DNA from: Candidatus Poribacteria bacterium
GTDB taxonomy: Bacteria; Poribacteria; WGA-4E; WGA-3G
Length of the DNA stretch: 64,000 nucleotides
Assembly (NCBI GenBank): GCA_965242965.1
Contig: OZ251518.1
Location: 2,848,001-2,912,000, forward strand
Direction of reading: 5' to 3'
The position numbers and the translations under genes were made by a program. The notes beneath the pieces were generated by a model that was not told the origin of the DNA, ran no database searches, and saw only the letters and a program-made list of their open reading frames with translations. This document shows positions 5,014 through 28,029 of the stretch, one piece after another (within the stretch, counting starts at the first letter, position 1; each line of letters opens with the position of its first letter).

Positions 5014-8000
5014 TCAAGGCGTTATTTCCCACAGAAGCACCGTGCCATCCCAACTGCCAGATGCGAGTGTGCGCCCATCCGGGGTGAAGGTGAGGCTTGA
5101 GATAGGGTCGGTATGGCCGGTGAGGAGCTGCAGCGGTGTGCCGGAGGCAACATCCCACAACCTAATGACGTGCCAACTGCTGCTCGCGAGGGTGCCGCCA
5201 TCGGGACTGAAAACGAGATCCCCGGGCACTGGCGTGTGTAGTGTTTTTGTGGGCACCCCACTCGCTGTATCCCACAGCCTGATGGTGTTATCCCAGAATC
5301 TCGCGCTTGCGAAGGTGCTACCGTCGGGGCTGAAGGCAATAGAACTGATAGTTTGCGCGTGTTCATTGAGCACCTTTATGTTGAGCGTTTTTACGTTTTC
5401 TCGGGTAATCACATCCCAAAGTCGGATAGTGTTGTCGACACCTCCACTCGCCAAGGTGCTGCCATCGGGACTGAAAGCAACGTTCCTAACACCGTCGGTA
5501 TGTCCCGTGAGCACCTTTATATCTTTGCCGTTGCGTGCATTCCACAAGCGGATAGTGCTGTCCGAACTTGCACTCGCTAACAGGGCACCACTAGGGTTGA
5601 AGGCGACACTCGTAACCCCGTGCGTATGTCCGCTGAGCACTTTGTTGCGTTTGCCGAACAAACTTTCCCACAGCGAGTTTTTCCCTATGCTTGCATCCCA
5701 CAGTCGAACGGTTTTATCTTTACTTGCACTCGCCAGAGTGCGGCCATCAGGACTGAAAGCAACGTTCCTAACACCGTCCGTGTGTCCCGTGAGCGTCTTT
5801 GTGTTTCTCCATGCGTGTCCATTCCAGAGATAAATGTTACCACTCGACCCCGCGCTGGCGATGGTGAGGCCATCGGGACTGAAAGCAACGCTACCAACCC
5901 TGCTCGTATGTCCCTCAATCGTTTTTGTGTGTTTGCCGGTATGCGCATTCCACAGGCGGATTTCTTCGCTAGTTGCGCTGGCGATGGTGTTACCGTCGGA
6001 ACTGAAGGCAATGCTATTGACACTATTTCTGTGTCCCTTGAGCGTTTTTGGCCACCTGCCGATAATTGTTTCCCAAAAAGCGCGTTTTCCGGTGCGCTCA
6101 TCCCACAGCCGGACGATGTTGTTATCGTTATCCGAACCTGCGATTGTCAAAGTCCTTCCATCGGAACTGAAGGCAATGCTACGGATACTAGCCTTACGTC
6201 TCTTGAAGGATTTTACCTTCGTTCCGGTGGCGACATCCCACAAGTAGATTTCGTTTGAGTTCGCGCTTGCCAGAGTGTCTCCATTGGGACTGAAGGCAAC
6301 ACGACGGTGGTACGTATGCCCAGTCTGGGCAAGTGTCTTTAGGTGTTTGCCGGTGGGAACGTCCCAGAGATGGATGACAGGGTCCGCACTTGCTGCTAGG
6401 ATGCTCCCATTGTGATTGAAAGCGACGCACAAGACCTGATATATTCCATCTGCGCTGAGTGTCAGGGTGTTTTCGCCTGTGGCAACATCCCACAGTTGGA
6501 CATCATCGTGACTGGCAATCGCCAAGGTGCCACCGTCGGGGCTGAAGGTGATGTCCCTTTCCCAACCGGACATTCTAGCGAACGTCTTGATGTGGGTGCC
6601 GGTGTCCACATCCCATAAGCGGATCGTTCTATCCGAACTTGCGCTGGCGAGGGTGCTACTATCCGGACTGAAGACGACATTATGAACACCGGCCGTATGG
6701 CCAGTGAGCATCGCGACTTCTTGACATGTCTCGGCATCATATAGCCAAATGCCCACGGAACTTGCTACGGCGAGACGCGTGTTATCTGCGGAAAACTGGA
6801 TATCATGTATCGTGCCTTTGCCAAGGCGCGCTTTGGGCCCTTCGTGTATAGGGATTACCTTCGACAGCAGCACCGTGCCATCGCCACTCGCGCTAGCGAG
6901 TGTGCTCCCATCAGGCGTAAAGGCGACGCTATTGACCCCGGATGTATGGCCACGGAATACTTGTGCACGGCTACCGGTGGCTATATCCAACACAACGCTC
7001 TTATCGTGATATCCGACTGCGAGGGAACCGGCATCGGGACTGAAGACGACGCTCTCCACGCCAATATAGACTGTGAACGTCTGTATGTTTTTTCCGGTGG
7101 CAACATCCCACAGCCGGACGGTTCTGTCAGGCATTCGATTATTGGATTTGAAGTAGTCTTCCTGCCCACCACTCGCGAGGATGCCGCCATCCGGACTAAA
7201 ATCCAAACTCGTAACGACACCTGTGTGGCCCGTGAGTGTCTTTACGCTTTTTCCGGTCGTCAGATTCCAGAAACGAATAGTTTTATCTTCACTCGCACTT
7301 GCCAAGATGCCGCCATCCGGACTAAAATCCAAACTCGTAACGAAGTCTGTGTGTCCCACGAGCGTCTTTGTGTTCTTTCCTGTCTCCAGATCCCAGAGGT
7401 GGATTTCTTTATCCCCCGCGCCTGCCAGGGTGCCACCATCCGGGCTGATGGCCACGCTAGTCCTATAGAACTCGTCCGCAGGTCTGTCCGTATATCCCCT
7501 GAACGTCAAGGTGTTTTCGCCGGTGGGGACATCCCAGATACGGATAGTTCTGTCGTGTCCCGCACTCGCCAATCTACTTCCATCGGAACTGAAGACGATG
7601 TTCCCTTGGCGCGAATGTCCTCTCAGCGATTTTTTCTTCCGTCCAGTATTAGTATCCCAGAGAGAAATGGTGCCACCCCATGCCGAGCTTGCCAAGGTGT
7701 CCCCATCGGGACTGAAAGCGACGCTCTTCACCGAGACCGTGTGTCCATGAACCGTGTCTGTATTTTTTCCGCTGGCAACGTCCCAGAGGCGGATGACACC
7801 ATACCCACTCGCGATTGCCAAGGTATCCCCATCGGGACTGAAGATGACGCTCTCAACCCAACTTGTAGGTCCCTTGAGTATTTTCGTCTGTTTTCCGGTG
7901 CCTGCGTCCCAGAGGCGGATGGTTTCATCCGAACTTGCACTCGCGAGGATTTCCCCATCCGGACTGAAAGCAATGCCGTCGACAGTTTCCGTATGTCCCG

Positions 8001-8757
8001 TGAGGGTCCTTATGTTTTCGCCGGTAGTCACATCCCACAAACGGAGAGTTTTATCCCAACCGATTGCAAGGATGTCCCTATTCGGGCTGAAAGAAAAGCA
8101 CTCAACATCGCTCGTCTGTCCGTGAATCGTTCTTGTGTTTTCACCGGTGGCCACATCCCACAAACGGAGTGTATTGTCCAAACACACACTTGCTAGAAGC
8201 CTGCCATCGTGATTGAAGGCTATGCTCTCCACACTAGCCGTATGTCCCGTGAAGGTCTTTATGTTTTCGCCGGTGGCCACATCCCATAAATGGAGAGTAC
8301 TCCTACGTGAACTTGCCAAGGTAGCCCCATCCGGACTGAACACAATGTTAGTGTTATAGCCGGCATTCGTACGACTCGTGAATTTTTGCAGTGGTGTGCC
8401 GGTGGCGACATCCCACAACTGAATAGAGTGAATAGAGCTCTCACTCGCGCCTGCCAGAGTGCTACCATCAGGACTGAAGGCCACGCTGTCACAAGCTACC
8501 TGTTCACCGGAGTGATTCTCTTGAGTCAGTAGAGCGACTTCCTGATATGTCTCGGTATCATACAGCCAAATCCCCACGGCACTCGCTACCGCAAGCCGCG
8601 TGCCATCCGGTGAAAACTGAATATCATTGGCTCTGCCTTTGCCTAGCCGCGCGATGGCCCCTTCGGGTAACTGCCATTGGGATACATCCTGGGCGAAAAC
8701 ACCGGTGGCCAGGATAAGCATCAGCGTCAAAATGGACAAGAATAAACTGTGTTTCAT
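5014..8757 (-). CDS. Secreted WD40-repeat protein (1247 aa, duplicated propeller module)
   Basis: Signal peptide; more than 20 GH...V.S.AFSPDG..LAS.S.D.TIRLWD repeats; ARLGKG...DIQFS module occurs twice. Confidence 0.95.
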   Translation of the reverse strand: MKHSLFLSILTLMLILATGVFAQDVSQWQLPEGAIARLGKGRANDIQFSPDGTRLAVASAVGIWLYDTETYQEVALLTQENHSGEQVACDSVAFSPDGSTLAGASESSIHSIQLWDVATGTPLQKFTSRTNAGYNTNIVFSPDGATLASSRRSTLHLWDVATGENIKTFTGHTASVESIAFNHDGRLLASVCLDNTLRLWDVATGENTRTIHGQTSDVECFSFSPNRDILAIGWDKTLRLWDVTTGENIRTLTGHTETVDGIAFSPDGEILASASSDETIRLWDAGTGKQTKILKGPTSWVESVIFSPDGDTLAIASGYGVIRLWDVASGKNTDTVHGHTVSVKSVAFSPDGDTLASSAWGGTISLWDTNTGRKKKSLRGHSRQGNIVFSSDGSRLASAGHDRTIRIWDVPTGENTLTFRGYTDRPADEFYRTSVAISPDGGTLAGAGDKEIHLWDLETGKNTKTLVGHTDFVTSLDFSPDGGILASASEDKTIRFWNLTTGKSVKTLTGHTGVVTSLDFSPDGGILASGGQEDYFKSNNRMPDRTVRLWDVATGKNIQTFTVYIGVESVVFSPDAGSLAVGYHDKSVVLDIATGSRAQVFRGHTSGVNSVAFTPDGSTLASASGDGTVLLSKVIPIHEGPKARLGKGTIHDIQFSADNTRLAVASSVGIWLYDAETCQEVAMLTGHTAGVHNVVFSPDSSTLASASSDRTIRLWDVDTGTHIKTFARMSGWERDITFSPDGGTLAIASHDDVQLWDVATGENTLTLSADGIYQVLCVAFNHNGSILAASADPVIHLWDVPTGKHLKTLAQTGHTYHRRVAFSPNGDTLASANSNEIYLWDVATGTKVKSFKRRKASIRSIAFSSDGRTLTIAGSDNDNNIVRLWDERTGKRAFWETIIGRWPKTLKGHRNSVNSIAFSSDGNTIASATSEEIRLWNAHTGKHTKTIEGHTSRVGSVAFSPDGLTIASAGSSGNIYLWNGHAWRNTKTLTGHTDGVRNVAFSPDGRTLASASKDKTVRLWDASIGKNSLWESLFGKRNKVLSGHTHGVTSVAFNPSGALLASASSDSTIRLWNARNGKDIKVLTGHTDGVRNVAFSPDGSTLASGGVDNTIRLWDVITRENVKTLNIKVLNEHAQTISSIAFSPDGSTFASARFWDNTIRLWDTASGVPTKTLHTPVPGDLVFSPDGGTLASSSWHVIRLWDVASGTPLQLLTGHTDPISSLTFTPDGRTLASGSWDGTVLLWEITP

Positions 8758-13812: not shown

Positions 13813-14832
13813 CTATTCCGCATCGTAAATCGCAAGCTTCCTACGCAACGTCTTGCGGGCAATGCCCAAAACCGCCGCGGTCCGCGCCTGATTCCTACCC
13901 AGGCTCTCGTAAGTCTCTAGGATATACCGCTTTTCTACTTCCGCCAACGTGAACCCAATCGGGGCAATTGGCTGAAATTGCTTTTGAGAGAACTGAGTTT
14001 CTGACGAAGTGCCGACAGGTTGGAGCTCCGGTTTCCGAATTCTAACGGGGAGGTGCATCGGTAAGATAACGTCTCCTTGTGCGAAGACGATTGCACAAAC
14101 GACGACTTTTCTCAACTCGCGGACATTCCCCGGCCATGCGTAATTTTCGAGGCGTGCTAAAGTTTCGGGAGCGATGCCGCCGACATCTCGCCCCAAGCGT
14201 TGGCTTTCTTCTGCCAGAAAGTAGTCTACCAACAACGGGATGTCCCCTACCCGTTCCCGGAGCGGCGGCAAATCGATAGTAAACCCCTCCACCCGATAAT
14301 AGAGATCTTGGCGAAAGGTGCCAGCACTCACCTCGGCCTCAAGGTTGCGGTTGGTGGCAGCCACCAGTCGGACATCAACGTAAATCTTTTTTGTGCCGCC
14401 GAGGTGTTCAATCTCGCCGTTCTCTAACGCTCGAAGCAATTTGGGTTGAAGGAGTAGGGACAGTTCCGCGATTTCATCTAGGAATAATGTGCCCTTGTCT
14501 GCCAATTCAAACTTACCGGGCTTCTCTTCGTATGCGTCCGTATACGCGCCCCTCTCATGCCCGAACATTTCGTCCTCCATGAGCGTCGCCGGAATTGCAG
14601 CACAATTGACCGTAATCTTCTTTTTTTCGGCGCGACGGCTATTCGTGTGCAAGGCTTCTGCGACGAGCTCCTTGCCGGTGCCCGTTTCACCTTGAATCAG
14701 CACGGAGATGGGGACATCCGCGAACAGATCGATTTGCTTGAGGACTTCAAGCATCTGTGGGCTCTTGCCAATGATGCCGGCATAATTGCCCTTCAAGGTA
14801 TCTCTGGCATTTTTCCCGGTGTCGTTTTTCAC
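13813..14832 (-). CDS. Sigma54-dependent enhancer-binding activator without N-terminal sensor (AAA+ plus Fis HTH)
   Basis: GETGTGKE, GAYTDA, LFLDEI, RQDLYYR, WPGNVREL, C-terminal HTH; only about 18 residues precede the AAA+ domain. Confidence 0.93.
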   Translation of the reverse strand: MKNDTGKNARDTLKGNYAGIIGKSPQMLEVLKQIDLFADVPISVLIQGETGTGKELVAEALHTNSRRAEKKKITVNCAAIPATLMEDEMFGHERGAYTDAYEEKPGKFELADKGTLFLDEIAELSLLLQPKLLRALENGEIEHLGGTKKIYVDVRLVAATNRNLEAEVSAGTFRQDLYYRVEGFTIDLPPLRERVGDIPLLVDYFLAEESQRLGRDVGGIAPETLARLENYAWPGNVRELRKVVVCAIVFAQGDVILPMHLPVRIRKPELQPVGTSSETQFSQKQFQPIAPIGFTLAEVEKRYILETYESLGRNQARTAAVLGIARKTLRRKLAIYDAE

Positions 14833-14952: not shown

Positions 14953-14994
14953 GGAAAATACGAAAAAAGTTTCGGCTAGTGTCAAGAGACAATA

Positions 14995-15343
14995 CCGGTA
15001 GGAGAGACCTCCTGGTCTCGATTCCTCCGCGAACGGGCGATGGCGCGCCGTAGGAGAGACCTCCTGGTCTCGATGCAACATTAAGGTCCTACGGACCTTG
15101 ATAGGGTAAGTCACGTGTTTCTATAGACATTAAGGTCCTACGGACCTAAAAGAGCGGTTTGATGGACCGCAGCATGGCGAGGGACAGGCCCTCGCCCTAC
15201 GATAAAGGGGGCCGTTCTGCTACCAAGAGACCCTCCCCATACCGGAGCGCGGGAGTGCATCGAGACCGGGAGGTCTCTCCTACCGGGGGCATCGCTCGCA
15301 GCGAGACCGGGACGGCGCACAAACAGATTTATGAAACACCCTC
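14995..15343. repeat. REP mosaic ending in TIR ATTTATGAAACACCCTC
   Basis: GAGACC x3, AGGTCC and GGCGAGGG units plus right TIR. Confidence 0.85.
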
Positions 15344-15349
15344 ACTTAG

Positions 15350-16120: not shown

Positions 16121-16291
16121 GACTTGACTACCTCCTTTCTGTAGGGCAAACGGATATGAAAATTCAGATCGAAATCGGCGGAGAGGAACAGGCACTCGCA
16201 ATGCCGCGGCGCACGCGGGGGACAAACCTCCGGTAGGAGAGACCTCCCGGTCTCGATTCCCCCGCACTGTGTGCCAAGCAGTTATCGCATG

Positions 16292-17044
16292 TCACTCTCC
16301 AATCCGCGGTGTCCAATTGAATTGGTCGAGAGTCCCTTCTTCCAGAGCCAATTGCTTAGATTCCTTGAGATATTCAAGGTGATCTGCCACGACTTGAATC
16401 CCTTCTGGAATTACAAGCCCGGGCATGAGCCGCAAAAGGGCTTCTGTGCTGGCAATGGCATCGTCAATTGTTGCCGTTCCCGCATTGCCGCGTCGGACTG
16501 TCTCAACGAGGATATCCACATCCGGAGAATCCCCCCATTGTTCACGCCAGGCTTCGTCAAGGCGTTGGTAAGCATACGCCGGATTGGTAGCAAGATAAGC
16601 ATTGTAATCCGCAAATCCTGCTTCGACTTTCGCCATGTCGTAAGGCACTTCTGGCTGCCCTTGCGTGAATTCTTCTTCCGATTCAACCGGCACCGTTTCG
16701 GTTTCTTCCAGAAACAGGTCGAGCGCGCTTCCAGTAAACTCCGACGGCGGTTCTTCAACAACTGAAAAGGTTTCTGCGCTTCTCGCCGAATCGGTGCCCT
16801 GTCCCTCTGGTGCTGCTTTCAGCAGTGGGCTTTCGGAAACCGAGGCGGTTGGCGGTTGTGGGACTTCCTGGTGAGTGTTCTCCGACAGTGCGGCAGCATT
16901 CGGTGCCGTGTCTACTGAGGGAACTTCGGGCAGCGATGCGTCAAACCGCTTTATTTCCCACTCGACGTAGATGAAAAGGCCGGCACAGACAAGGATAACC
17001 AGGATAGAAATTCCCGCAATCCGTTTCAAGTCTGCTGAGTTCAT
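16292..17044 (-). CDS. Membrane-anchored hypothetical protein (family X, paralog of 18889-19629)
   Basis: TM followed by WEIKRFDASLPEVP; PEVPYDMAKV.AGF.DYNAYL...AYQRLDEA shared with 18889-19629. Confidence 0.85.
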   Translation of the reverse strand: MNSADLKRIAGISILVILVCAGLFIYVEWEIKRFDASLPEVPSVDTAPNAAALSENTHQEVPQPPTASVSESPLLKAAPEGQGTDSARSAETFSVVEEPPSEFTGSALDLFLEETETVPVESEEEFTQGQPEVPYDMAKVEAGFADYNAYLATNPAYAYQRLDEAWREQWGDSPDVDILVETVRRGNAGTATIDDAIASTEALLRLMPGLVIPEGIQVVADHLEYLKESKQLALEEGTLDQFNWTPRIGE

Positions 17045-17099
17045 AATGTTTCTCCTTCCCTACTGGGTTGAGGTTGCGTCTGTCCTAATCCACTTAGGT

Positions 17100-17367
17100 C
17101 AGGGTGTTTCATAAATCCGTGTCGGTAGTTATCCCCCCTTGGAGGACGGGCGAATACCGAAAGGCATCGGGTCCACCTCTGTAGTTCGGGAGCGGGCGCT
17201 CCCGAACAGGTCAGGATCAGGCGATCCTGACCTACAGGGGTGAGGCGGTCTGCTAGCCAAACGCATGGCGAGGGACAGGCCCTCGCCCTACGATAAAGGG
17301 CGGCGTTTTTTTCACCGCAGCGCGGGGGCCTGTCCCCGCGACGTTGAACGATTTATGAAACACCCTC
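17100..17367. mobile_element. MITE-like element with TIRs carrying REP units
   Basis: CAGGGTGTTTCATAAAT ... ATTTATGAAACACCCTC; interior similar to 4238-, 20955- and 31606- copies. Confidence 0.8.
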
Positions 17368-17403
17368 AATTAGATCTGGACAGTTTTGCGATGCCAAGAC
17401 AGG

Positions 17404-18336
17404 CTACTCTTTCTCTGGCAGCAAGAAAGCTTCTACGCTAAAGTGGAAGCGTATTGTCTCCGTTTCAAGAGAGCCTTGCTTCCGGAGCAAATTGCTGATG
17501 TTTTTGAGCCTTTCAAGCGAACGTTCCGCTGTTTGAATCATTTCAGCATACTTTTGGGCATCCGTCTCTTTCATTACCTGAAGTTGCAGTTCTGTCAACT
17601 CAATCACCTCGGGATAGGTGGCTTTCTTCTTCGGTGCGAGAGCGAGCACGGTGTCAACTATTTTTTCAACGAGCGGATGTTCACCATATTGCAAGGCGAG
17701 TAGCGCGACCAGTTCAGCCCGTGCCGCTTCTGCATCCGTGTCGCGAAGTTTTTCAAAAGCCGCTGCATGCTTGCGCCCTAACCGAAGCACCTCTGCATCT
17801 GTGCCGTGAAGTTTTTCAAAAGCCGCTACATGCTTGCGCGCCAACCGAAGCACCTCGCTCTTGCTCGCCGGGACAGGTTTTTCCACGTCGGTTTTCGGCG
17901 CGTGACTGTGGTGATGCAACGCTTTTTCCATAGCGGCGAACCGTTGGAATGCCTCTTGGTGACGATGTATCTGGACCGAATACTTTTTGACATTGATCTT
18001 CGTTAGCATTCGGATTTCTAATTCAGACACCCGTTTCACATCCGAAGGATGCTCCGTTCCGTTCTGGCTAATGCGGAAGTAGAGCGGCACCCATTCTTCG
18101 GCGAGGCGATGTCCGCCAAACAAGGTGTTGGCAACCTGTTGAAGTTCGGCGCGTGCCGCTTTCGCATCCGTAGCGAGGAGTTCTTGAAAGCGTGTCAGTT
18201 CCTCACCCCAAAGCGTATTGCTGACGAGGCTGAGTTGCGGGGGCACAGTTTCTGAGGTGTCTTCTAACTCACCAAAAGAAAACGTTCCGAGCGTGCAAAG
18301 GACCAGGCATAGCAGGTTCATGATTCCAAATCGCAT
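17404..18336 (-). CDS. Secreted helical hypothetical protein (family Y, paralog of 19664-20518)
   Basis: AAGGAGG RBS, signal peptide; LFGGH.LAEEWVPLYFRIS..G.EH.SDVKRVSELEIRMLT shared with 19664-20518; 21-aa tandem repeat. Confidence 0.85.
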   Translation of the reverse strand: MRFGIMNLLCLVLCTLGTFSFGELEDTSETVPPQLSLVSNTLWGEELTRFQELLATDAKAARAELQQVANTLFGGHRLAEEWVPLYFRISQNGTEHPSDVKRVSELEIRMLTKINVKKYSVQIHRHQEAFQRFAAMEKALHHHSHAPKTDVEKPVPASKSEVLRLARKHVAAFEKLHGTDAEVLRLGRKHAAAFEKLRDTDAEAARAELVALLALQYGEHPLVEKIVDTVLALAPKKKATYPEVIELTELQLQVMKETDAQKYAEMIQTAERSLERLKNISNLLRKQGSLETETIRFHFSVEAFLLPEKE

Positions 18337-18406
18337 GAGAAACCTCCTTGTGAAAAGGCAGGGCGCGCTTTTCGGCGTTAAAGGCACCCCGCTACTCCTC
18401 ACGATT

Positions 18407-18830
18407 TTTCAGATACCCCAGTCTAAAGACTGGGGATTGTATTCCTTTTAGAGGACACGTTCTCCAGCGACTGGCGGCTTTGCGTTTCGTAGAGGTTGGC
18501 AACCCAACGCTCTCCACGCGACCCCTCAGCAGGGTCAAGAGTGTTATTTGTATCTGGTAGGTGTTTTTGAACAGCGATTATCTCCCTCGCATCAGGTCCC
18601 GTTTCGTCGGTATTGGCTTGCGTATTATTTCACGTCGCACCAAGCAGCGACGGTGGACTGCGTTGTTCACTCGAACGCAGCATTCACACTCAAACCTAGC
18701 AGACTGGTATAGATTATACCACATTTTTCAACCGAATGCAAATCTTTTTTTCTCATGTTTGCACTGACAAAAGAGGGCGGACTTTCCTCCCCAGACCCGT
18801 ATGGGGTTTCCAGTCCGTAAATTTAGATGA
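18407..18830 (-). mobile_element. Non-coding IS200/IS605-like mini-element with internal promoter and omegaRNA-like 3' end
   Basis: Subterminal hairpins CCCCAGTCTAAAGACTGGGG and CGGACT..CCCCA..TGGGG..AGTCCG; minus-strand GCGTGGAGAG...CTCTACGAAACGC; no ORF; TTGCAT-17-TATAAT promoter. Confidence 0.6.
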
Positions 18831-18888
18831 AGATGGACACACGTATCCACAAGACCGCGGGTGGCCGTGAAATACGATGGCACAATCT

Positions 18889-19629
18889 TCATCTGATATC
18901 GCGTCCGTAATTGAGTTGGATAGTAGCCCCCTCTTCAAGGGCTAATTGTTTGATTTCGTGGAGATATGCCAGATGATCAGCGACTATCTGCACCCCTTCA
19001 GGGGCAACAAGCCCGTGCATGAGCCGCAAAAACGCGCTTGTGTTGTCAATAGCATCGTCAATTGTGGCGGTGCCATCATTGAAACGGCTAAAGGTTTCAA
19101 CGAGAATATCGACATCCGGCGAATCCCCATATTGCTCCCGAAATGCCTCGTCTAAGCGTTGATAGGCATAACCCGGGTCTGTTTCCAGATAGGCATTGTA
19201 ATCATCAAATCCCGCTTGGACCTTCGCCATGTCGTAGGGAACCTCCGGTTCGCTCTCCATGAAGTCTTCGGGTTCAAGTAAATCCCCATCTGTTTCTTCG
19301 ATAAACAGGTAGGGGGGCTCATCAAGCGGTGCCGATGGCGGTTCTTCGGCAACCGAGGCAATTTCTGCAAGTCCGGCGGCATCGGTTTCGGTGTTGTCCG
19401 ATTCGGCTGTCCACCGCGATGTTTCGGAAACCGATAAGGCGGCGGTCTGGGTGCGCTCCTGGCGTGTCCGTTCGGAAGGGCCGGCGGTGTCTACCGGGGG
19501 AACTTCGGGCAGCGATGCGTTAAACCGCTTTAATTCCCATCGTTCGTAAACAAAAAAGCCAGCACAGATAAGGACGGCTAGGAGGAGCGCGCCGCCGATA
19601 ATACCGAGATTCTGTCGTCGCAATTTCAT
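18889..19629 (-). CDS. Membrane-anchored hypothetical protein (family X)
   Basis: AAGGAG RBS; TM followed by WELKRFNASLPEVP; C-terminal half closely similar to 16292-17044. Confidence 0.85.
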   Translation of the reverse strand: MKLRRQNLGIIGGALLLAVLICAGFFVYERWELKRFNASLPEVPPVDTAGPSERTRQERTQTAALSVSETSRWTAESDNTETDAAGLAEIASVAEEPPSAPLDEPPYLFIEETDGDLLEPEDFMESEPEVPYDMAKVQAGFDDYNAYLETDPGYAYQRLDEAFREQYGDSPDVDILVETFSRFNDGTATIDDAIDNTSAFLRLMHGLVAPEGVQIVADHLAYLHEIKQLALEEGATIQLNYGRDIR

Positions 19630-19663
19630 GTCGTTCTCCTTTCAGATTGGGGCGGCCCCTGTA

Positions 19664-20518
19664 TTATTTCCCAGATAAAGAAATATTGAACGGCGTTTTC
19701 TGCGCCAGTTTGCCTTGGCGTTCCAGCAGTTTGCTCAGTGCCTTGAGCTGCTTCAAGCCGGACGTAAGTCCTGCAATCTGCTCTGCCTCCCTTTCAGGTG
19801 CCGTGTCTTTCAGCATCTGTATGTGCCACTCCGTCAACTGGATGAGCTCTGGAAAAGTGGCTTCCTTCTCACGAGACAGGCGGAAAAACAGTTCAATCCA
19901 CCCTTCTTTGAGCGGGTGCTCGCCAAACATGAGCGACGCGAATGCAGCCAACTCCGTGCGTGCGGATTTCATATCCGTGAAGAGGTATTCCTCAAAGGCA
20001 GCGGCATGGGCGTTCATCTGCTCAATACGCAAGGCAGTCGCTGCATCTCGCATTTTTGTCCGTTCGCCGGGGGAGTGTTTTTCAAGGAGTAACTCTCCAG
20101 TGTCACCGACTTTCGCCAGAGTGTCAAGGCGTTCAAGTGCTTCTCGGTGGCGTTGTATCTGTTTCGCATATTTCGCCGCATTGATAGCTGTCAGCATGCG
20201 GATTTCCAATTCAGATACACGTTTGACATCCGAAAGATGTTCGCTCCCCTCACGGGAGATGCGGAAATAGAGGGGCACCCATTCTTCCGCGAGCGGATGT
20301 CCACCGAACAGCGTTCCTGCAACGCTTTGGAGTTCAGCGCGCGCCGTTTCCGGTTCGGTGCGGAGCAGTTCCCAAAACGTTTGGAGCGGCTCCGTCCAAA
20401 TCGTCTTGTTTATCCGGTAAGTGGGTGCGTGCCGGTGCGACTCGGGGGCAGCGGCACTTTCCGTTAAGAAACTGACTATTAGCAGCGCGATTATCGCACT
20501 AAAAACGGTCCCTTTCAT
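19664..20518 (-). CDS. Secreted helical hypothetical protein (family Y)
   Basis: AAAGGAG RBS, signal peptide MKGTVFSA...; two ARxEL...FG.HPL...W..L.FR units. Confidence 0.85.
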   Translation of the reverse strand: MKGTVFSAIIALLIVSFLTESAAAPESHRHAPTYRINKTIWTEPLQTFWELLRTEPETARAELQSVAGTLFGGHPLAEEWVPLYFRISREGSEHLSDVKRVSELEIRMLTAINAAKYAKQIQRHREALERLDTLAKVGDTGELLLEKHSPGERTKMRDAATALRIEQMNAHAAAFEEYLFTDMKSARTELAAFASLMFGEHPLKEGWIELFFRLSREKEATFPELIQLTEWHIQMLKDTAPEREAEQIAGLTSGLKQLKALSKLLERQGKLAQKTPFNISLSGK

Positions 20519-20775
20519 TTTTTCTCTCCTTTGACACCTTAAGGGTGCCTTGATTTTCTTCTCGCACGCCGGATTCCTTTCTGTCTCGCGTGTTTTGAGG
20601 TGAGCATACTTGCATCGAGACCAGGAGGTCTCTCCTACCGGCATGCACTTGGTAACAAAGCGTGGAGGTGAGCATGCCCCCCTGCCGAGCTGTATATCCT
20701 GTGAGTGTGCTGTCTTTCCTTGAGAAGGCAGCAGTCACACGGGACAGACCGGCACGCTTTTCTATAAACTATTGT

Positions 20776-20791
20776 AGCAAGTTCCGTGCCA
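20776..20791 (-). promoter_or_regulatory. Sigma54 -24/-12 promoter for the Y-X-Y-X-X genes
   Basis: TGGCACGGAACTTGCT matches the TGGCAC-N5-TTGC consensus. Confidence 0.85.
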
Positions 20792-21304: not shown

Positions 21305-23315
21305 AATTAAATGCCCGGATAACCTTCACTAACAATCTTTGTCTGAATTCAATAGCGTTCGGATCTCCGAGGATGATGAAAAAGTCGGTGCCGGCATAAC
21401 CGGAACGCCGGAGTGCGAAATAGATGTTCACCCCTTCCGCTTGCCATATCAGCCGACTGCCAAGGCTTAACGCCGGGCTGAAGTCATACGTCAGTGTTAA
21501 AATCTGTTGATACCGCTGCTCAAAATGCCACTGGATTTGGGTGGTAAAGCCCGCCGTGAACCCGTAAGCGCGGAGATTGAGATTTCCGCTGATGCGATGA
21601 AGCCGTTCACCAGCCTGCTCTCCACCTGCATAATTGATACTGACATTGTTAAACCGGTCTGAAGTCCGGATGCCCAAACCGATTGTGAAAACGCTATCGG
21701 TGAATTCTTCAAATCGGCCACCGTTCCAATGGACAGAAAGGGAGTAATCGCTGTGCGTCAAAAGGCTCGCGTATGCCGAAACGCTCCGCCGGAAAACCTC
21801 CCCTTCGTCAGTGTTCGATGCTTCGGACAGGACAGAGAGAAGTGCATTGCGTAGAAATCCTTCGCGCCATTCGTTACGGAGCCATCCACCGAGACTTGCG
21901 CCGCGATACCCGGTAAACGGATGATAGCCGAGATGATTGACGAAATCCGCGGCGGTAAAAAAGGCGGAAAGGTAGGCAAACCCCACCCCGCCGTTGTAAC
22001 TGAAAGCGGCATATCCCGAACTGCCATCGGATTCGCCTGCCCAACTTTGTGCAAAGTTTCCTTGTAGAGAAAACTTCCCCTGGCGCACGTTCCCCGAGAA
22101 ATAGCCAACGTTGTTTGATGACACTTCTCGCTGGTTGTATGACAGCAACGCCGCGCTGATAGTGGATGTAGCCGAAAACGACTGGGACGCGCGGAGAATC
22201 ACGTTCTGGTTATTTCGATGATAGGTGCCTAATGTCCCCACGGATGTGTTTTTACCGATTTTCCCGAAGAGGTTCAGCCCGCCATCCATGTCTACTATCC
22301 GCCGCGAATGGAAATAACTACCGAGACGATAGACATTGCCCCCTTCCAAAAAGAAGGGCCGCCGGTCTGACACGTAGCGTTCACCGTAGGAGAAGTCTAT
22401 CCCTTCCACAGCCTGCTCAAGGTTCTCAAAATCGGGGTTGGCAGTGCCGATGAGCCGGAGCTGCGGTGTTACTTCAAAGCGAAGATTGCCGCCGGCACGC
22501 GCCGTGTATGTCCGTTCTTCTGTCTCGCTGATGCCGCCGATGAGATACGGCAAGAACTTCACCTCCCGTTTGCGCGGCGGCGGCAGCACGTCTATCCAAT
22601 GTCCATCGTTTTCACGGAACTCCTGTAGCCCTAGGTTGCACCACCACGAACGTTCGCCGGTGCGCTGTTGCAACCTGTCAACGTTAATCCCCATCCGAAT
22701 AGGCTTCGTTGTATTCGGATAATCCAACATCTGCCAGGGGATTTCCATTTCAACAACCCATCCATCTGCTACGATTTGCGCGGCGACGTTCCAAAGTCCG
22801 ATCCACTCGCTTTTCTCAGCGCGCCCGGTGGCGAGGTGTGCATATTTCGTGCCGAGGGGATTCGCCATGAAGAAGTTCCTATCGCCGAATTGGTGCGTAT
22901 GGAACGCATCAATGCTGAACGACACCCAGTCTTCGTCGCGGATGCGCGCCTGGTCCTTCGTCTGGCGTGCCACGATTTTATCAGGCATCTCGTCAGAGAG
23001 ATGGAGCCCGACGTAGATGGCTTTGTCCGTGTAAACGAGCCGGAAGACGGACTGATTTCTCGCTGGTTTTTCGGTGCGTTCATCGGTGAAACCCACGCCT
23101 CGCGGTGCATCTTGCCAACAGGTATCGTCAAGAATCCCATCTATCATCGGTGGCTGTGCGGTTTTGTGTGCAGGAAGTTGTTTTTGAACCGTTTGTTCTC
23201 TATCGGGACGCGAGAGCCCACCTACCGGTTCGGGACTAGAACCCTCTCCTACAGCTGCAATGGCGGTGAGGTGGCATAGAGAAAGCCCGATGAGCAGGGG
23301 CATCATGAATCTCAT
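21303..23315 (-). CDS. CBM9/DOMON-like plus DUF5916-like outer-membrane protein
   Basis: Signal peptide; PMIDGILDD..W, GWVVEMEIPW, ANPDF, DRRPFFLEG, FHSRRI; amphipathic beta-strand C-terminal half. Confidence 0.8.
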   Translation of the reverse strand: MRFMMPLLIGLSLCHLTAIAAVGEGSSPEPVGGLSRPDREQTVQKQLPAHKTAQPPMIDGILDDTCWQDAPRGVGFTDERTEKPARNQSVFRLVYTDKAIYVGLHLSDEMPDKIVARQTKDQARIRDEDWVSFSIDAFHTHQFGDRNFFMANPLGTKYAHLATGRAEKSEWIGLWNVAAQIVADGWVVEMEIPWQMLDYPNTTKPIRMGINVDRLQQRTGERSWWCNLGLQEFRENDGHWIDVLPPPRKREVKFLPYLIGGISETEERTYTARAGGNLRFEVTPQLRLIGTANPDFENLEQAVEGIDFSYGERYVSDRRPFFLEGGNVYRLGSYFHSRRIVDMDGGLNLFGKIGKNTSVGTLGTYHRNNQNVILRASQSFSATSTISAALLSYNQREVSSNNVGYFSGNVRQGKFSLQGNFAQSWAGESDGSSGYAAFSYNGGVGFAYLSAFFTAADFVNHLGYHPFTGYRGASLGGWLRNEWREGFLRNALLSVLSEASNTDEGEVFRRSVSAYASLLTHSDYSLSVHWNGGRFEEFTDSVFTIGLGIRTSDRFNNVSINYAGGEQAGERLHRISGNLNLRAYGFTAGFTTQIQWHFEQRYQQILTLTYDFSPALSLGSRLIWQAEGVNIYFALRRSGYAGTDFFIILGDPNAIEFRQRLLVKVIRAFN

Positions 23316-24388
23316 GCATCTTCCTCCTGAAACATTCTCAATTTGCTGCGCAAAGTCGGACGGCTCACGTCTAAAACCGCGGCGGTTTGCGCCTGATTGC
23401 CATCCAGCCGCGCGAGGGTTTCTAAAATGTATATCTTCTCTACCTGCTTCAAGGTTAACCCCACCGGGATGGCCACGGTAGGTTGGTTTTGCGATGTAAG
23501 CATTGACTGGCCCGGGTCAGGTGCATAAAGTTTTTTCGGTAAATGCTCCGGTAAGATAAGGTTCCCTTCCGAAAGGATGAGTGCGTAAGTGACGCTCTTT
23601 TTGAGTTCTCGGATATTTCCGGGCCAGGCGTAATCTTGAAGGAGCTGGAACGTTTGTGCGGCGAATCTGCCTACCGGTTCATCGGTAGTCGGATGGGGCG
23701 CGTGCGCCTTTAACCGTTCGCTTAGTGGTGGCAGCCGCATAGAAAACCGCGTGAGTTGCGGCGGCTCTTGTGAGAAGTGTTCCACGAGCTCACGGATATC
23801 CTCTTTCCGTTCGCGCAGCGGCGGCAGCGAAATAGAAAACCCCTCAAGTCGATGATAGAGGTCCTCCCGAAATTCGCCTTCGTGAACGGCTTGTTCTAAG
23901 TTGCGGTTGGTTGCGGCGAGAATTCGGACATCCACCGGAATCGGTGCTTTGCCGCCGAGGCGTTCCACCTCGCCTTCCTCCAGCGCGCGCAGCAACTTCG
24001 GTTGGAGTGACAGGGGCAAATCGCCGATTTCATCAAGGAACAGTGTCCCCTTGTCGGCGCGTTCAAACTTCCCAATCCGCTGCTGCTTCGCATCGGTAAA
24101 GGCACCCTGTTCATACCCAAACAGTTCGCTCTCAACGAGGCTCTCCTGAAGCGTCGTGCAGTTGACGACGACGAGCGGCCCCGTTGCGCGGGGGCTGTTG
24201 GTATGTAGGGCGCGTGCTACTAACTCCTTGCCTGTCCCTGTTTCACCGTAAATCATCACGGGGACATCGTGTCTTGCTAGCAACTCAATCTTTTTTAGGA
24301 CTTCAAGAATCTGTGGGCTGCTGCCGATGATGGCACTGTAATCTCCATCTAATGAATCTCTTGTCCTCTCGGCTGTTTTGCGCTGCAT
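23312..24388 (-). CDS. Sigma54-dependent enhancer-binding activator without N-terminal sensor
   Basis: GETGTGKE, ESELFG, GAFTDA, LFLDEIGD, WPGNIREL, Fis HTH; ATGA overlap with the downstream gene. Confidence 0.93.
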   Translation of the reverse strand: MQRKTAERTRDSLDGDYSAIIGSSPQILEVLKKIELLARHDVPVMIYGETGTGKELVARALHTNSPRATGPLVVVNCTTLQESLVESELFGYEQGAFTDAKQQRIGKFERADKGTLFLDEIGDLPLSLQPKLLRALEEGEVERLGGKAPIPVDVRILAATNRNLEQAVHEGEFREDLYHRLEGFSISLPPLRERKEDIRELVEHFSQEPPQLTRFSMRLPPLSERLKAHAPHPTTDEPVGRFAAQTFQLLQDYAWPGNIRELKKSVTYALILSEGNLILPEHLPKKLYAPDPGQSMLTSQNQPTVAIPVGLTLKQVEKIYILETLARLDGNQAQTAAVLDVSRPTLRSKLRMFQEEDA

Positions 24389-24434
24389 GTTATCGTCCTT
24401 TCATGCCTAACGGCACTGTTATATCAAATTACGT

Positions 24435-25004
24435 CAGGGTGTTTCATAAATCGCTCAATGTTGCGGTGAAACCCGCTCGGATGCGCGTGTGGCATCCGAG
24501 GGCCCCGCGCTACGGTAAAAAAACGCTTTCCCTTCACGTAGGGCGAGGGCCTGTCCCTCGCCATGCTTGATTGCCGCTTTCACCGTAGGGCGAGGGCCTG
24601 TCCCTCGCCATGCACCGGGCTGAGCCGCAAACATCCGGGGTCTCTGGGCTGCGGACGTTTTCCACAGCGGTTGAGAGATCGCGGGGGACAGGCCCCCGCG
24701 CTACGGTAACAAATAAGAAATCGTCACCGTTTACCGTAGGGCGAGGGCCCTCGCATGCCACACGCGCATGCGAGAGGGTTTCCCTCGCCATGCCGAAGGT
24801 CTGTAAGACCTTAATGTCTATAGCATCCTGCACCGCAGCGCACCCTAAGGTCCTTTAGGTCCTTAATGTGCCTTGACTCCCTTGGCTGCCGCTTGATTAA
24901 GGTCCTAGCGGACCTTGAAAACAGTGGCATGTCTGTTTTTCTATAGACATTTAGGTCTTAAAAGACCTAAAGAGGCATCCATAACGGATTTATGAAACAC
25001 CCTC
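24435..25004. mobile_element. MITE with TIRs and a perfect 9-bp target-site duplication
   Basis: AAATTACGT at 24426-24434 and 25005-25013 flank CAGGGTGTTTCATAAAT...ATTTATGAAACACCCTC. Confidence 0.88.
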
Positions 25005-25064: not shown

Positions 25065-27185
25065 TCAATCCAAACCGGTTGCAACCAGAGTGATGCGCAC
25101 CAACTCTTCGGTTTGCAATTCATCGTTGTAGGAAAGCCCGAAGATAACTTGGGCATCCGATGCGGCATTCTGGATAACCTGCATCGCGCTATCCAATTCC
25201 GCCATCATGAAATCCTGTGGCGCGACAACTTCTACCAGCAGACCGGAGGCTTTGGCGAGATTCGCGCCTTCGAGAAGCGGCGAAGAAACGGCGGATTCAG
25301 CCGCGATGCGCCCGCGCTCCTCTCCCACCGCCTGTCCGATGCCCATCGCCGTCCGCCCTGGAACCCGTAAGACAGATTCAACATCGGCGAAGCCAACGCT
25401 AACCTCATGCTCGGCATTTACGATGTTCCCGGTGATGAGTTGAACGCCTCGGATGAGGAGTTCATCGCTAACGCGGAAAACCTCCTGAGTCCGTTTGACA
25501 CTTGTGCCAGAACTTTCGGCAATCGCGTCCCCTTCGTCAATCAGGTGTTGGTTGCCGACAACGATGAGGGAATCTGCAGCGGTTCGGAGTGCTTTCACGC
25601 CGTTTTCGGCTTGCGCCGCGCGCTGCTCTCCCTCAGCATGGAAAGGCAAGGTTACCATCGCAACGGTTAATACGCCGTATCTGCGAGCGAGCGATGCGAT
25701 ACGCGGTGCTGCAACGGTGCCGGTGCCGCCGCCCATGCCAGCAACGATGATAACCATGTCCGCATCCGAGACGAGGGTTTCCAATGCCACGCTATCTTCC
25801 TCCGCTGCCTCTCGTCCAACTTCCGAATTGCCTCTGGCACCAACCCCTTTGGTGGCTTTCTGCCCAATCTGGATTGGTGTGATATCGTCGTAGGCATCCA
25901 AGGCACCGCTGTCGGTGTCAACCGCATAAAATTCAAGTCCGGTTAACCCGGCTTCACGCATGCGATTGACAGCCTTTCCGCCGCCGCCTCCGACACCGAT
26001 AATCTTCACGGTGACAGGTGTCGCCTTCAATTTCATCGGCATGATGAGATAAGTCTGTCCCGATTCACCTACCGGTTCCGCAACTGCCGGATTTAATTCC
26101 CCAGAGCACTTCAGTTGGATACTTTCGGTATCCAGATGCGAGAGTGCCTCCATCAACAACCGCGCATCAAACCCAATCCGCAGGTTTTTCGTGCAAGAAT
26201 CGACAGAGACGGTTTCGTGTGCTCTGCCGAGCCCCGGGGTCTTCGCCGAAAGCCGAATGTTCTTTTCCGGCTCGTTGATTTCCAAGCAGATGGCACAGCC
26301 TTTTTTCAGTTCCGATAACAGGGAGATGCGGCGCACCGCCTGCAGCATCGTCTCGCGCTTGAATACGGTGCGGACTTGCATCGCCCCGGGTTTCGGGATA
26401 ATCTTCTCGTAGTCCGGGTATTCATCATCTATCAAGCGCGCTGTCAGCGTGGTGCGCTCATCGGCGATGCTCAGACACCGCGTCGGGTTAAACGGTTCGC
26501 TGCTCTGGAAGAACGAAACGTTCACCGAGTCCGCATCGGCGAAAATTTGGGGGATGGCTTGCACCGCCTTGAGCGGCACAATGAACCCTGTCACCCCTTC
26601 CGGCGGTGTCAGCGCATCACAGCGCACCAGCGCGAGCTGCCGGCCATCAGTTGCAACTACCTCCGTCCTATCGCCAAGGAAGTTAAAATAGAGCCCGCAC
26701 AGCATTTTCCGCTTTTCTTCCTCGGTGGATGCTGCGAATGCGGTTTTGTGGATAACCTCACGCAGCGTCTGGAGGTGGATGTCCAAAGGCTCTCCCTCAA
26801 ACACGGGGAGCTGTGGGAACTCTGTCGCCGGTAGCCCCACAATGATGAACGTTGGGATGAACGTTGAGGTATCAACGCTGTTCTCACACGTCAACTTCAC
26901 TTGGTTGTTCGCCGGTGTGGTGAGGCGGAGCTCCGAGTCTGGCAGCACCTTGACGATGTCCGTCAGTTTCTTAGCGGGGACGGCAATCGCGCCTTCTTCC
27001 AGAATAGTCCCATCCACCTTAGTGCGAATGCCTACCTCCATGTCCGTGGCGGAGCACTCAATTTTCCCTTCATCCGCCTTGATAAGGACGTTTGAAAGCA
27101 TTGATGAAGGACTGTGCCCATTTGCAACACCCTGCACTATCTGCAGCGAGTGCAAAAGGGGTTCTTTTTGAAACGTTAATTCCAT
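25065..27185 (-). CDS. DNA polymerase III beta-clamp (DnaN)-FtsZ fusion protein, 706 aa
   Basis: About aa 1-385: SATDMEVGI, VPAKKL.DIVK.LP, VATDGRQL, RLID.EYPDY, IGFDARLL, YLIMPM; remainder: KIIGVGGGGG, DTD, AGMGGGTGT, PF..EG, FADV, GIG, SPLLE, IFG, LVATG; GGAG RBS. Confidence 0.92.
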   Translation of the reverse strand: MELTFQKEPLLHSLQIVQGVANGHSPSSMLSNVLIKADEGKIECSATDMEVGIRTKVDGTILEEGAIAVPAKKLTDIVKVLPDSELRLTTPANNQVKLTCENSVDTSTFIPTFIIVGLPATEFPQLPVFEGEPLDIHLQTLREVIHKTAFAASTEEEKRKMLCGLYFNFLGDRTEVVATDGRQLALVRCDALTPPEGVTGFIVPLKAVQAIPQIFADADSVNVSFFQSSEPFNPTRCLSIADERTTLTARLIDDEYPDYEKIIPKPGAMQVRTVFKRETMLQAVRRISLLSELKKGCAICLEINEPEKNIRLSAKTPGLGRAHETVSVDSCTKNLRIGFDARLLMEALSHLDTESIQLKCSGELNPAVAEPVGESGQTYLIMPMKLKATPVTVKIIGVGGGGGKAVNRMREAGLTGLEFYAVDTDSGALDAYDDITPIQIGQKATKGVGARGNSEVGREAAEEDSVALETLVSDADMVIIVAGMGGGTGTVAAPRIASLARRYGVLTVAMVTLPFHAEGEQRAAQAENGVKALRTAADSLIVVGNQHLIDEGDAIAESSGTSVKRTQEVFRVSDELLIRGVQLITGNIVNAEHEVSVGFADVESVLRVPGRTAMGIGQAVGEERGRIAAESAVSSPLLEGANLAKASGLLVEVVAPQDFMMAELDSAMQVIQNAASDAQVIFGLSYNDELQTEELVRITLVATGLD

Positions 27186-27280
27186 TTTGCAAATCTCCTA
27201 TCTCTCTCAAGAGTTATCAACAGAACAATTCTGCTGAGTCCGGCTCAGCAGATGTGCTGTTAGGTTTTACTGAATAGTGT

Positions 27281-27296
27281 TGCAATTTCCGTGCCA
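27281..27296 (-). promoter_or_regulatory. Sigma54 -24/-12 promoter of the dnaN-ftsZ fusion
   Basis: TGGCACGGAAATTGCA about 95 bp upstream of the ATG; GGGACAAAA at 27348-27356 is shared with the other putative UAS. Confidence 0.85.
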
Positions 27297-27409: not shown

Positions 27410-27968
27410 CCGTAGGAGAGCCCTCCTGGTCTCGATGAGGTTCGTATCGGGACAAGGATGTCCTTCCTACCGGAATCCCTCGGGCCCACCTCTGTAGTTC
27501 GGGAGCGCCCGCTCCCGAACGGGTTAAGCGCGCGGCCGCCTCATCTACCGTAGCGCGGGGGCCTGTCCCCCGCGAGCGTTCGACCCGCGCGAAAAACACA
27601 CGCAAACCAACGCCGTTTCCCCAACCGACGCACGGCGAGGGACAGGCCCTCGCCCTACGGGGAAACGGAAACGGCCTTGCATACCGTAGCGCGGGGGCCT
27701 GTCCCCCGCGAGCGTTCACGTGCCCAGGACTGTAGTTCGGGAGCGCCTGCTCCCGAACGGTTCAGGAGCAGGTGCTCCTGAACTACAGGAGGGATGAGCG
27801 CGCGGCCGCCTCATCTACCGTAGCGCGGGGGCCTGTCCCCCGCGAGCGTTGGGGTGCGCGGGCATGAACGATGGCGAGGGACAGGCCCTCGCCCTACGGT
27901 GAAGTACCGTTTTTTATCGCAGCGCGGGAGCCTGTCACCGCAACGTTGAGCGAGTTATGAAACACCCT
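27410..27968. repeat. REP mosaic ending in a TIR-like TTATGAAACACCCT
   Basis: Multiple GTAG-class palindromes. Confidence 0.85.
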
Positions 27969-28029
27969 AAAATAAAATGCCTCTGGACAAATTCCGCGTT
28001 TGATGGTATCGTATCATGAAGACACGAAA

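Follow-up and report, generated by a model that had tools for sequence, protein, structure and literature searches.

A Poribacteria gene fuses a DNA sliding clamp to a tail-less FtsZ paralog with a rewritten T7 loop

Coupling between DNA replication and cell division is known for only a few model systems, where it operates through dedicated DNA-binding inhibitors. The nucleoid-occlusion factors SlmA and Noc are sequence-specific DNA binders that are unrelated to FtsZ or to the sliding clamp DnaN. The gene described here joins the latter two proteins. It lies on the reverse strand at 25065..27185 of a 64,000-nt stretch of DNA (the window: positions 2,848,001 to 2,912,000 of contig OZ251518.1, assembly GCA_965242965.1) from a Candidatus Poribacteria bacterium, and encodes a beta sliding clamp followed in frame by an FtsZ core with no tail and a rewritten T7 loop. 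The sequence suggests that the fusion ties DNA replication to cell division, as a link or brake that can be switched. The preferred reading, to which a probability of roughly 40% is attached, is that the induced fusion would act as a turnover-blocking or end-capping FtsZ subunit carried on a clamp, near replicating DNA.

The T7 loop of FtsZ enters the active site of the adjacent subunit, and mutation of D209 or D212 in the Escherichia coli protein is reported to impair GTPase activity and function severely (10.1101/677963). The D212A protein is described as having 7% of its activity left (PMC8142252), and Z-ring dynamics as being abolished in D212 mutants (D212A/G; 10.1101/077610). FtsZ filaments grow at their bottom (T7) end, which is capped by MciZ-bound subunits, and bottom cappers shorten filaments at sub-stoichiometric levels (10.1101/2020.02.25.965095). 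FtsZ1 of Agrobacterium tumefaciens, which is tail-less, is reported to form no polymer alone, to co-polymerise with canonical FtsZ and to need it for mid-cell localisation (10.1101/412759).

The Poribacteria fusion is a single open reading frame (ORF) of 706 aa, and all of its features given below lie on the reverse strand. The clamp half (residues 1-386; 26028..27185), recognised by Pfam, by TIGR00663 and by fold match, has three domains and ends in ...LIMPMKL. It is followed by a six-residue linker, KATPVT (residues 387-392; 26010..26027; direct reading and model), which runs from the clamp end to FtsZ strand S1, and by an FtsZ core (residues 393-706; 25068..26009) that consists of the GTPase and FtsZ_C domains without linker or C-terminal peptide. 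The ORF end, ...LVATGLD and the stop codon at 25065-25067, coincides with the end of the core. Pfam families PF00712, PF02767 and PF02768 were matched at residues 1-384, PF00091 at 393-550 and PF12327 at 610-706; the FtsZ half has the domain order of housekeeping FtsZ, with the Tubulin/FtsZ GTPase domain preceding the FtsZ C-terminal domain. The clamp half scored 235 bits against TIGR00663 (DnaN), above the cut-off of 137.65, and the FtsZ half scored 275.1 bits against the FtsZ equivalog TIGR00065 (281.6 in a genome scan), under the cut-off of 295.2.

An AlphaFold2 model was built from a 78-row alignment, with a mean predicted local distance difference test (pLDDT) score of 86.2 and a predicted template-modelling score (pTM) of 0.62. 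Its pLDDT was low at only two insertions (residues 103-107 and 561-563) and somewhat reduced over residues 581-600, which include the T7 loop. Foldseek matched the clamp half of the model to solved clamps (TMt ~0.90) and the FtsZ half to FtsZ of Bacillus subtilis and Mycobacterium tuberculosis (TMt 0.93-0.94, root-mean-square deviation 1.8-1.9; B. subtilis 2vxy, 0.94 and 1.8), and found no solved chain spanning both halves together. As modelled, the two halves are shown as a full clamp fold and a full FtsZ core fold.

The junction between the halves is kept in 25/25 aligned fusion proteins. An assembly artefact or a split gene was ruled out, as these 25 proteins come from independent assemblies and the junction is spanned by a contig (25904-26099) from sequencing run X5. 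Those related runs that have an organism label are sponge metagenomes. A Shine-Dalgarno sequence, AGGAG (27195..27199), was read directly 9 nt 5' of the ATG at 27185, and the same layout, AGGAGATTTG...ATG, was seen at the start of the ortholog in genome G002. No ribosome-binding site was evident before the internal Met codons of the ORF.

The same 5.7-Mb genome (G000) contains a canonical ftsZ (L001 1156..2544; 462 aa; 394.8 bits against TIGR00065) ~1.6 kb from ftsA, as well as a canonical dnaN, one canonical dnaE, minC and rpoN; SepF was not found in this genome, which is an estimated 94.7% complete. Because canonical ftsZ and dnaN coexist with it, the fusion is an extra accessory copy, and is neither the cell's FtsZ nor its clamp. 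The canonical FtsZ has the motifs GGAGGNAV, NTD, GGGTGTG and INVDFADV and the end ...DWDIPAFLRVQKGSSGKTEK; its 121-residue tail, ending DWDIPAFLRVQK..., carries a DIPAFLR peptide. A second, otherwise canonical FtsZ in another genome (G013; L029 2347-3594, 415 aa) has an acidic tail end instead of the DIPAFLR-type peptide.

The FtsZ half was compared across 23 fusion rows, of which those of G002 and P0012 are probably one protein. The canonical sets comprised 14 Poribacteria FtsZs and 96 database proteins (95 FtsZs and one stray sigma-DnaN fragment, P0042), and the invariance of the T7, NTD, T3 and T1 columns was judged in 48 canonical FtsZs. The window protein differs at 14 of the 78 columns with at least 95% conservation across 111 canonical rows, and six of these 14 cluster round T7 and H8. 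The T7 synergy loop itself (HEVSVGFADVES, residues 593-604; 25374-25409) is rewritten at G593H, N596S (25398-25400, read directly, as are the next two codons) and D598G (25392-25394), with D601 (25383-25385) kept. NxDxxD, of which the N and both D residues are invariant in the 48 canonical proteins, is thereby replaced by SxGxxD. Asn596 has become S or T in 23/23 fusion rows and Asp598 has become G in 21/23, the D being retained in G002 and P0012; G593H is found in 22/23 rows, and M606L, A612T and A625G are each found in all 23. The third T7 acid, D601, is retained in every row and, according to a published passage, corresponds to D212 in E. coli. A single transition separates the S codon from the canonical N codon, and likewise the G codon from the canonical D codon.

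Residues 585-598 of the T7 loop are the segment most diverged from canonical FtsZ (21% identity, compared with 52.5% overall), yet they are among the best kept parts inside the fusion clade (conservation 0.94). A loop that is least like the canonical one and still highly conserved among the fusions is, judging from the alignment, re-specified rather than left to drift. The initial annotation of this DNA had pointed to the VSVGFADV loop and proposed a hydrolysis-impaired FtsZ. The loop is as it described, and two of the three invariant polar residues of T7 are gone; however, since D601 is retained, the T7 loop is probably ‘impaired’ and need not be ‘dead’.

Other changes in the FtsZ half differ in how far they belong to the lineage. 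As the initial annotation had noted, DTD (D423-T424-D425, in AVDTD; 25911..25919) replaces an NTD triplet, which is invariant in the 48 canonical FtsZs; the first D is present in 23/23 fusion rows, and also in a stand-alone FtsZ paralog of genome G009 and in one sigma-FtsZ paralog, both discussed below. In the T3 loop (GVGARGNS; 25824..25847), R451 stands at a position that is Gly in all 48 canonical rows and is R, K or D in 20 of the 23 fusion rows and G in three. The tubulin signature (T4; GMGGGTGTVAAP, residues 483-494; 25704-25739) reads GGGTGTV in the window, as had been noted at the outset, through a GTT codon for V491 (25713-25715). However, the other 22 fusion rows have Gly at this position (ortholog codon GGG), and all four related runs read C, which gives Gly, at window position 25714 at 100% of depth; GGGTGTV is for this reason a private variant of this assembly or an assembly error, and not a lineage feature. 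The signature is GCGTGTG in 2/13 cluster sequences (the window protein and 12 members). The Lys of GGGGKAV, in the T1 loop GVGGGGGKAV (residues 397-406), is likewise present in the window, but replacement of the T1 Asn by K or E is restricted to a sub-clade with at least 84% identity, P0012 and P0013 retain N, and the Asn is not among the columns at least 90% conserved in canonical FtsZs.

The motifs of the GTP pocket are otherwise mostly retained: the T1 glycines, T4 (in the orthologs), T5 PF..EG..R, the T6 Asn, and the Phe and Asp of H7. An acidic, Ser-rich insertion of variable length occupies the H6-H7 loop (residues 550-568; 25482..25538) on the nucleotide (‘top’) face; it is missing in P0013, G009 and canonical FtsZ, varies among close orthologs (conservation 0.72) and is modelled at a pLDDT of ~56. 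No residue follows the core in any fusion row, compared with 93-121 residues in the family's canonical FtsZs. The absence of a membrane tether, also claimed initially, is therefore upheld: the linker and the FtsA-binding peptide are missing, although the same genome's canonical FtsZ has both beside ftsA. None of the 14 canonical Poribacteria FtsZs carries these substitutions (0/14), which are accordingly not a peculiarity of the lineage's FtsZ in general.

The ratio of nonsynonymous to synonymous substitution rates (dN/dS) was estimated pairwise by the Nei-Gojobori method with 1000 bootstraps. For the FtsZ half it was 0.252 (95% 0.178-0.352) between G000 and G002 and 0.232 (95% 0.151-0.335) between G000 and G001, against 0.040 and 0.047 for the canonical FtsZ core in the same genome pairs; for the clamp half it was 0.235, against 0.071 for canonical dnaN. 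The paralog is thus ~five-fold relaxed, yet clearly under purifying selection, and values of 0.23-0.25 indicate a selected, re-specified paralog and not decay. Neutral evolution of the FtsZ half, an outcome that would have counted against the initial proposal, is excluded by values of 0.25 and 0.23 with bootstrap upper bounds of 0.35 and 0.34. A recent fusion without function that is drifting towards loss would account for the narrow distribution (one genus), for a dN/dS ~five times that of canonical FtsZ, for sporadic damage to the tubulin signature (G491V here and GCGTGTG in 2/13 cluster sequences) and for the variable low-complexity insertions in both halves. It is nevertheless very improbable, and already disfavoured: the highest of the 1000 bootstrap values was 0.49, the ORFs are open and full-length in 25 aligned sequences at 60-96% identity, the promoter and gene order are kept, and the T7 variant is conserved in the fusion clade.

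The clamp half matches residues 1-366 of the E. coli beta clamp end to end and is 66% identical to the same genome's own DnaN. Its domain I contains an in-frame, length-variable insertion of TF(I/S)P units (residues ~104-112; 26850..26876), of which orthologs have 0, 4, 8 or 12 extra residues; pLDDT is <50 at residues 103-107, and runs X1 and X3 show a 12-nt deletion at 26858. A free DnaN C-terminus, ...MP(M)RL, forms part of the partner-binding cleft. In the fusion the C-terminus is not free, as ...IMPMKL continues into KATPVT and the FtsZ core.

This geometry bears on the possibility that the clamp is the working part, an alternative or dominant-negative clamp in which the FtsZ core would be a GTP-binding plug on the C-face and housekeeping FtsZ would be uninvolved. 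Such a plug would block or re-specify the binding of partners, and might for instance throttle replication by way of heterodimers with DnaN. The linker is merely six residues long and directly follows the conserved C-terminal ...MPMKL, heterodimers with housekeeping DnaN are conceivable for so recent and similar (66%) a duplicate, and the two halves share the same relaxed evolutionary rate. Against this, the rewriting of an inter-subunit loop such as T7 is unexplained without an FtsZ-type interface, and because G009 keeps its FtsZ paralog without a clamp, that paralog has a clamp-independent role. A purely clamp-centred function is on balance improbable.

The G009 paralog also informs the origin of the fusion. 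In a maximum-likelihood tree, all non-canonical FtsZs of the family formed one clade (support 92/97.9), within which the fusion FtsZ halves grouped with the 308-aa, stand-alone, tail-less FtsZ of G009 (97/93.8). The T7 loop of the latter reads NVNFAD, the first Asp being gone here too, and its gene is syntenic with the fusion: an orthologous FGE-sulfatase/BNR gene (81%) lies on one side and a sigma-54 activator (59%) on the other. The clamp half was the sister of the genus's own housekeeping DnaN in a quick tree (99 by the Shimodaira-Hasegawa-like approximate likelihood-ratio test, SH-aLRT). No dnaN remnant was found by tblastn 5' of the G009 stand-alone paralog, where there were chance matches only (E at least 3.7). 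The simplest history is that a family-level ftsZ duplicate lost its tail and that a single genus subsequently joined a new dnaN duplicate to it in frame; gene conversion with dnaN could mimic a recent date for the clamp duplication.

A junction-spanning query found the fusion in 3/176 genomes of the phylum, which were 3/3 of its genus and 0/173 of the genomes of 30 other genera. A word-index search of a protein database returned 13 clusters (90% identity), all of this lineage and 96-60% identical to the window protein. Among 1.84 billion representative proteins the fusion makes up one cluster, and an exhaustive HMMER run on these representatives gave no other clamp-plus-FtsZ protein among the best 150 matches. 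The other two-stretch matches among these 150 (P0139, P0147, P0157 and P0282) were rejected as clamp fusions; they are tandem FtsZ-FtsZ proteins of 731-840 aa, and in P0147 T7 is degenerate in both copies. The ESM Atlas gave no usable match, and no description of a clamp-FtsZ fusion protein was found in the openly accessible full-text literature.

FtsZ paralogs from the family's other genera carry an extracytoplasmic function (ECF)-type sigma-70 module (regions 2 and 4) at the N-terminus and were found in three forms: sigma with a whole FtsZ core; sigma with the N-terminal GTPase domain of FtsZ only, ~407 aa (L022 6786-8009, L023 10906-12129, L024 7101-8330 and L025 10896-12119); and sigma-FtsZ-DnaE triple fusions of 1370-1434 aa (L026 3058-7170 in G012, 1370 aa; L031 5323-9588 in G022, 1421 aa; and P0022). 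The DnaE part of the triple fusions contains PHP, polymerase and finger domains and does not reach the length of the canonical 1183-aa DnaE that coexists alongside it. The sigma-70 module (regions 2 and 4) also precedes a complete DnaN paralog in proteins of 570-580 aa (P0016-P0021; loci L022 8997-10724 in G012, L023 5845-7578, L024 11725-13446, L025 5903-7615 and L047 1004-2746), which constitute a separate clade in the DnaN tree. The sigma-FtsZ(N-domain) gene of genus g5 adjoins an ortholog (73%) of the DUF5916 gene of the window, with the sigma-DnaN gene 1-4 kb off, and in 3/4 loci two ABC-2-like membrane proteins are encoded between the two. Several of the sister FtsZ paralogs have an altered T7 as well (SVN, NVN or TVG). 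FtsZ paralogs, clamp paralogs and transcription-initiation modules are therefore linked repeatedly, in differing physical forms.

These relatives would also suit a scaffold on the DNA side, in which the FtsZ half, instead of joining housekeeping FtsZ, would self-assemble into slow or non-hydrolysing oligomers or filaments that cluster clamps or organise replicating DNA. The entire paralog clade is untethered from the membrane and fused to DNA-associated modules (sigma-70 regions 2 and 4, DnaE and DnaN), the rewritten T7 face is as strongly conserved in the clade as a self-interface would be, and a clamp dimer would display two FtsZ domains. On the other hand, the H6-H7 loop of the top face is variable in length (conservation 0.72), which is odd for a homopolymer interface, and the tail-less paralog that has been studied, A. 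tumefaciens FtsZ1, is reported to be unable to polymerise alone (10.1101/412759). Self-assembly of this kind is rather unlikely.

The expression of the gene was considered from its upstream region. A sigma-54 type -24/-12 element, TGGCACGGAAATTGC (27282..27296, reverse strand), matches the consensus TGGCACN5TTGC exactly, 97-111 nt 5' of the start codon. The window has three exact matches and the whole 5.7-Mb genome has 30, where ~12 would be expected from composition; it is thus improbable that any one upstream region of 300 nt would contain a match by chance. The G002 ortholog (TGGCACGAAAATTGC, at -140) and the G009 stand-alone paralog (at -94 and -255) have equivalent elements upstream; the element is therefore kept in three genomes of two genera, and G000 has the rpoN noted above. 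The next gene downstream of the fusion (23312..24388, reverse strand) encodes a sigma-54 enhancer-binding protein of 358 aa that has AAA+ (PF00158, from residue 20) and HTH_8 domains only and is sensor-less; the pairing is kept in G002 (85% identity) and G009 (59%). Because a conserved sigma-54 promoter is combined with a sensor-less activator next door, the paralog is most likely expressed on a signal and not constitutively.

The same neighbourhood raises the possibility that the fusion is a signalling module, a partner of the adjacent activator, for which the PspA-PspF pair provides an analogy. The replication and division machines would titrate the fusion, and sigma-54 output would thereby reflect the state of the cell cycle; in a sub-version, the fusion would be a decoy for sensing phage inhibitors of DnaN and FtsZ. 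The order of sigma-54 promoter, FtsZ paralog and sensor-less activator is kept in two genera. In another genus, where the FtsZ paralog is syntenic by way of the DUF5916 ortholog (73%), that paralog itself carries an ECF-type sigma domain and has a sigma-DnaN fusion 1-4 kb away, and DnaN, FtsZ and FtsZ-DnaE all occur with the same sigma module. However, activators beside their target operons are common and need no feedback partner, and such a role leaves the selective rewriting and conservation of T7 unexplained. A signalling function is thus distinctly unlikely.

If the fusion is instead a turnover-blocking or end-capping subunit, as preferred here, its FtsZ half would, once induced, dock on housekeeping FtsZ. 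Where its T7 face met a GTP-bound subunit, the resulting interface would hydrolyse GTP poorly or not at all, or growth would be blocked. The FtsZ half would be kept from the membrane, with no route through FtsA, and would be fixed rigidly to the C-face of a sliding-clamp dimer, formed alone or as a heterodimer with DnaN, which would tie the effect to the pool of clamps behind replication forks. The initial annotation had suggested that the FtsZ half could cap or poison normal filaments wherever clamps accumulate on DNA, and such a role is plausible.

Several observations weigh against this mechanism. D601, the D212 equivalent, is kept in all rows, making residual activation possible. The altered top face (T3, DTD and the variable acidic H6-H7 insertion) could weaken docking on canonical FtsZ. 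A. tumefaciens FtsZ1 is reported to co-polymerise without a change in GTPase activity (10.1101/412759), and a tail-less state alone does not, therefore, imply an inhibitor. In the clamp half, 25 of the 103 columns that are invariant in canonical Poribacteria DnaN are altered, and the six-residue linker sets a 35-kDa domain beside the clamp's C-terminal partner-binding residues, which may prevent loading on DNA, a step that any effect ‘wherever clamps accumulate’ would require. Finally, the sigma-70 fusions of the sister paralogs and the pairing with a sigma-54 activator fit signalling as well as they fit a cytoskeletal role.

If the preferred mechanism is real, a natural covalent join of a replication clamp and a selectively rewritten FtsZ would constitute a direct physical link between replication and division, and the fusion would be a potential ready-made natural ‘capper’ for studies of FtsZ filament polarity and turnover. 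The case also shows that proteins of DNA metabolism and transcription can acquire FtsZ paralogs as modules, in a phylum of uncultured sponge symbionts about whose cell biology next to nothing is known. A broader proposal, which is doubtful, is that the FtsZ duplicates of Poribacteria are membrane-free, poorly hydrolysing modules on DNA machinery (the sliding clamp, DnaE and sigma domains), and that the clamp form is a sigma-54-induced ‘poison subunit’ that travels on clamps remaining behind replication forks and keeps division away from DNA under replication. FtsZ itself, in place of a DNA-binding inhibitor, would then be the material of nucleoid occlusion or of an arrest of the cell cycle. 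The clamp-FtsZ architecture is unique, and what is proposed beyond its sequence is inference.

The surroundings of the gene contain further repeated elements. GC-rich palindromes resembling repetitive extragenic palindromic (REP) elements (core GCGAGGGCCTGTCCCTCGC, variant GCGGGGGCCTGTCCCCCGC) were matched 80 times in the window, counted strand by strand, compared with an expectation of 0.03. Arrays of them flank the fusion gene on both sides (24430-24800 and 27480-27975) and stretch the gap between fusion and activator to 677 bp, compared with 164 bp in G002; ~50 further intergenic sites include 4404-4901, 8812-9108, 10264-10529, 38182-38388 and 40389-40714. A mobile-element origin of the fusion was ruled out, the flanking inverted repeats being these genome-wide palindromes and the neighbours being syntenic across genera. 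A 14-mer, TTATGAAACACCCT, has 16 copies in the window, against 0.01 expected, mainly at gene starts or beside REP-like arrays (sites include 15329, 17101, 17353, 20956, 21290, 24436, 24990, 27955, 31257, 31607, 50705 and 54640); at 27946-27973 it overlaps a sigma-70-like promoter match of the FGE-sulfatase gene, and the copy at 24436 precedes the activator gene.

The two other exact sigma-54 matches of the window lie elsewhere. One (20791..20777) heads a second sigma-54 unit (13813-20791, reverse strand) of five ORFs (246-332 aa) without a Pfam family, which ends with another sensor-less activator (13813..14832), 52% identical to the first. The other (8591-8605, reverse strand) lies within the 5'-terminal part of an ORF of 1247 aa (5014..8757), and the gene may consequently begin downstream of the match.

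Compared with the housekeeping FtsZ of the same genome (G000 C1:3163417-3164364), the fusion shares the two-domain fold, 55% core identity, T4 (in the orthologs), the T5 and T6 contacts and the last T7 Asp. It differs in its sub-cut-off score, in the T7 N and D, in DTD and the T3 Gly and in having no linker or FtsA peptide, and also in its position outside the ftsA-ftsZ cluster, its N-terminal clamp and its sigma-54 promoter. It is therefore outside the housekeeping FtsZ equivalog, as score, T7 motif, tail and gene context all fail, and it fits a loose class of tail-less accessory FtsZ paralogs in which the core is complete, the tail is absent and a canonical FtsZ coexists. The A. tumefaciens FtsZ1 (Atu_4673) and Magnetospirillum FtsZm are likewise complete, tail-less GTPase cores beside a canonical FtsZ. 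They are unfused, however; co-polymers of FtsZ1 are reported to hydrolyse GTP normally, and the portion of that report available mentions no T7 rewriting for FtsZ1 (10.1101/412759). The engineered E. coli T7 mutants (D209 and D212) resemble the fusion in the loss of a T7 acidic residue (10.1101/677963), but they are laboratory alleles of a sole FtsZ, whereas the fusion is a natural paralog that lacks the equivalents of N207 and D209 and keeps that of D212.

In its proposed working, the fusion would resemble MciZ, SulA and chloroplast ARC3, which are described as conditional factors acting on FtsZ ends or monomers. MciZ and SulA have no sequence relation to the fusion and no tie to a DNA clamp; ARC3 is FtsZ-derived, but is described as eukaryotic, with MORN repeats, positioned by Min and again without a tie to a DNA clamp. 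In alpha/beta-tubulin, the T7 residue of one partner is non-catalytic and the GTP at that interface is not hydrolysed; as this is a eukaryotic obligate heterodimer, the likeness is one of analogy only. The resemblance to SlmA and Noc would similarly lie in the proposed working alone, that of an FtsZ antagonist on DNA that steers division off the chromosome. In the fusion, by contrast, a topologically loaded clamp would provide the hold on DNA, and FtsZ itself would serve as the part that binds FtsZ.

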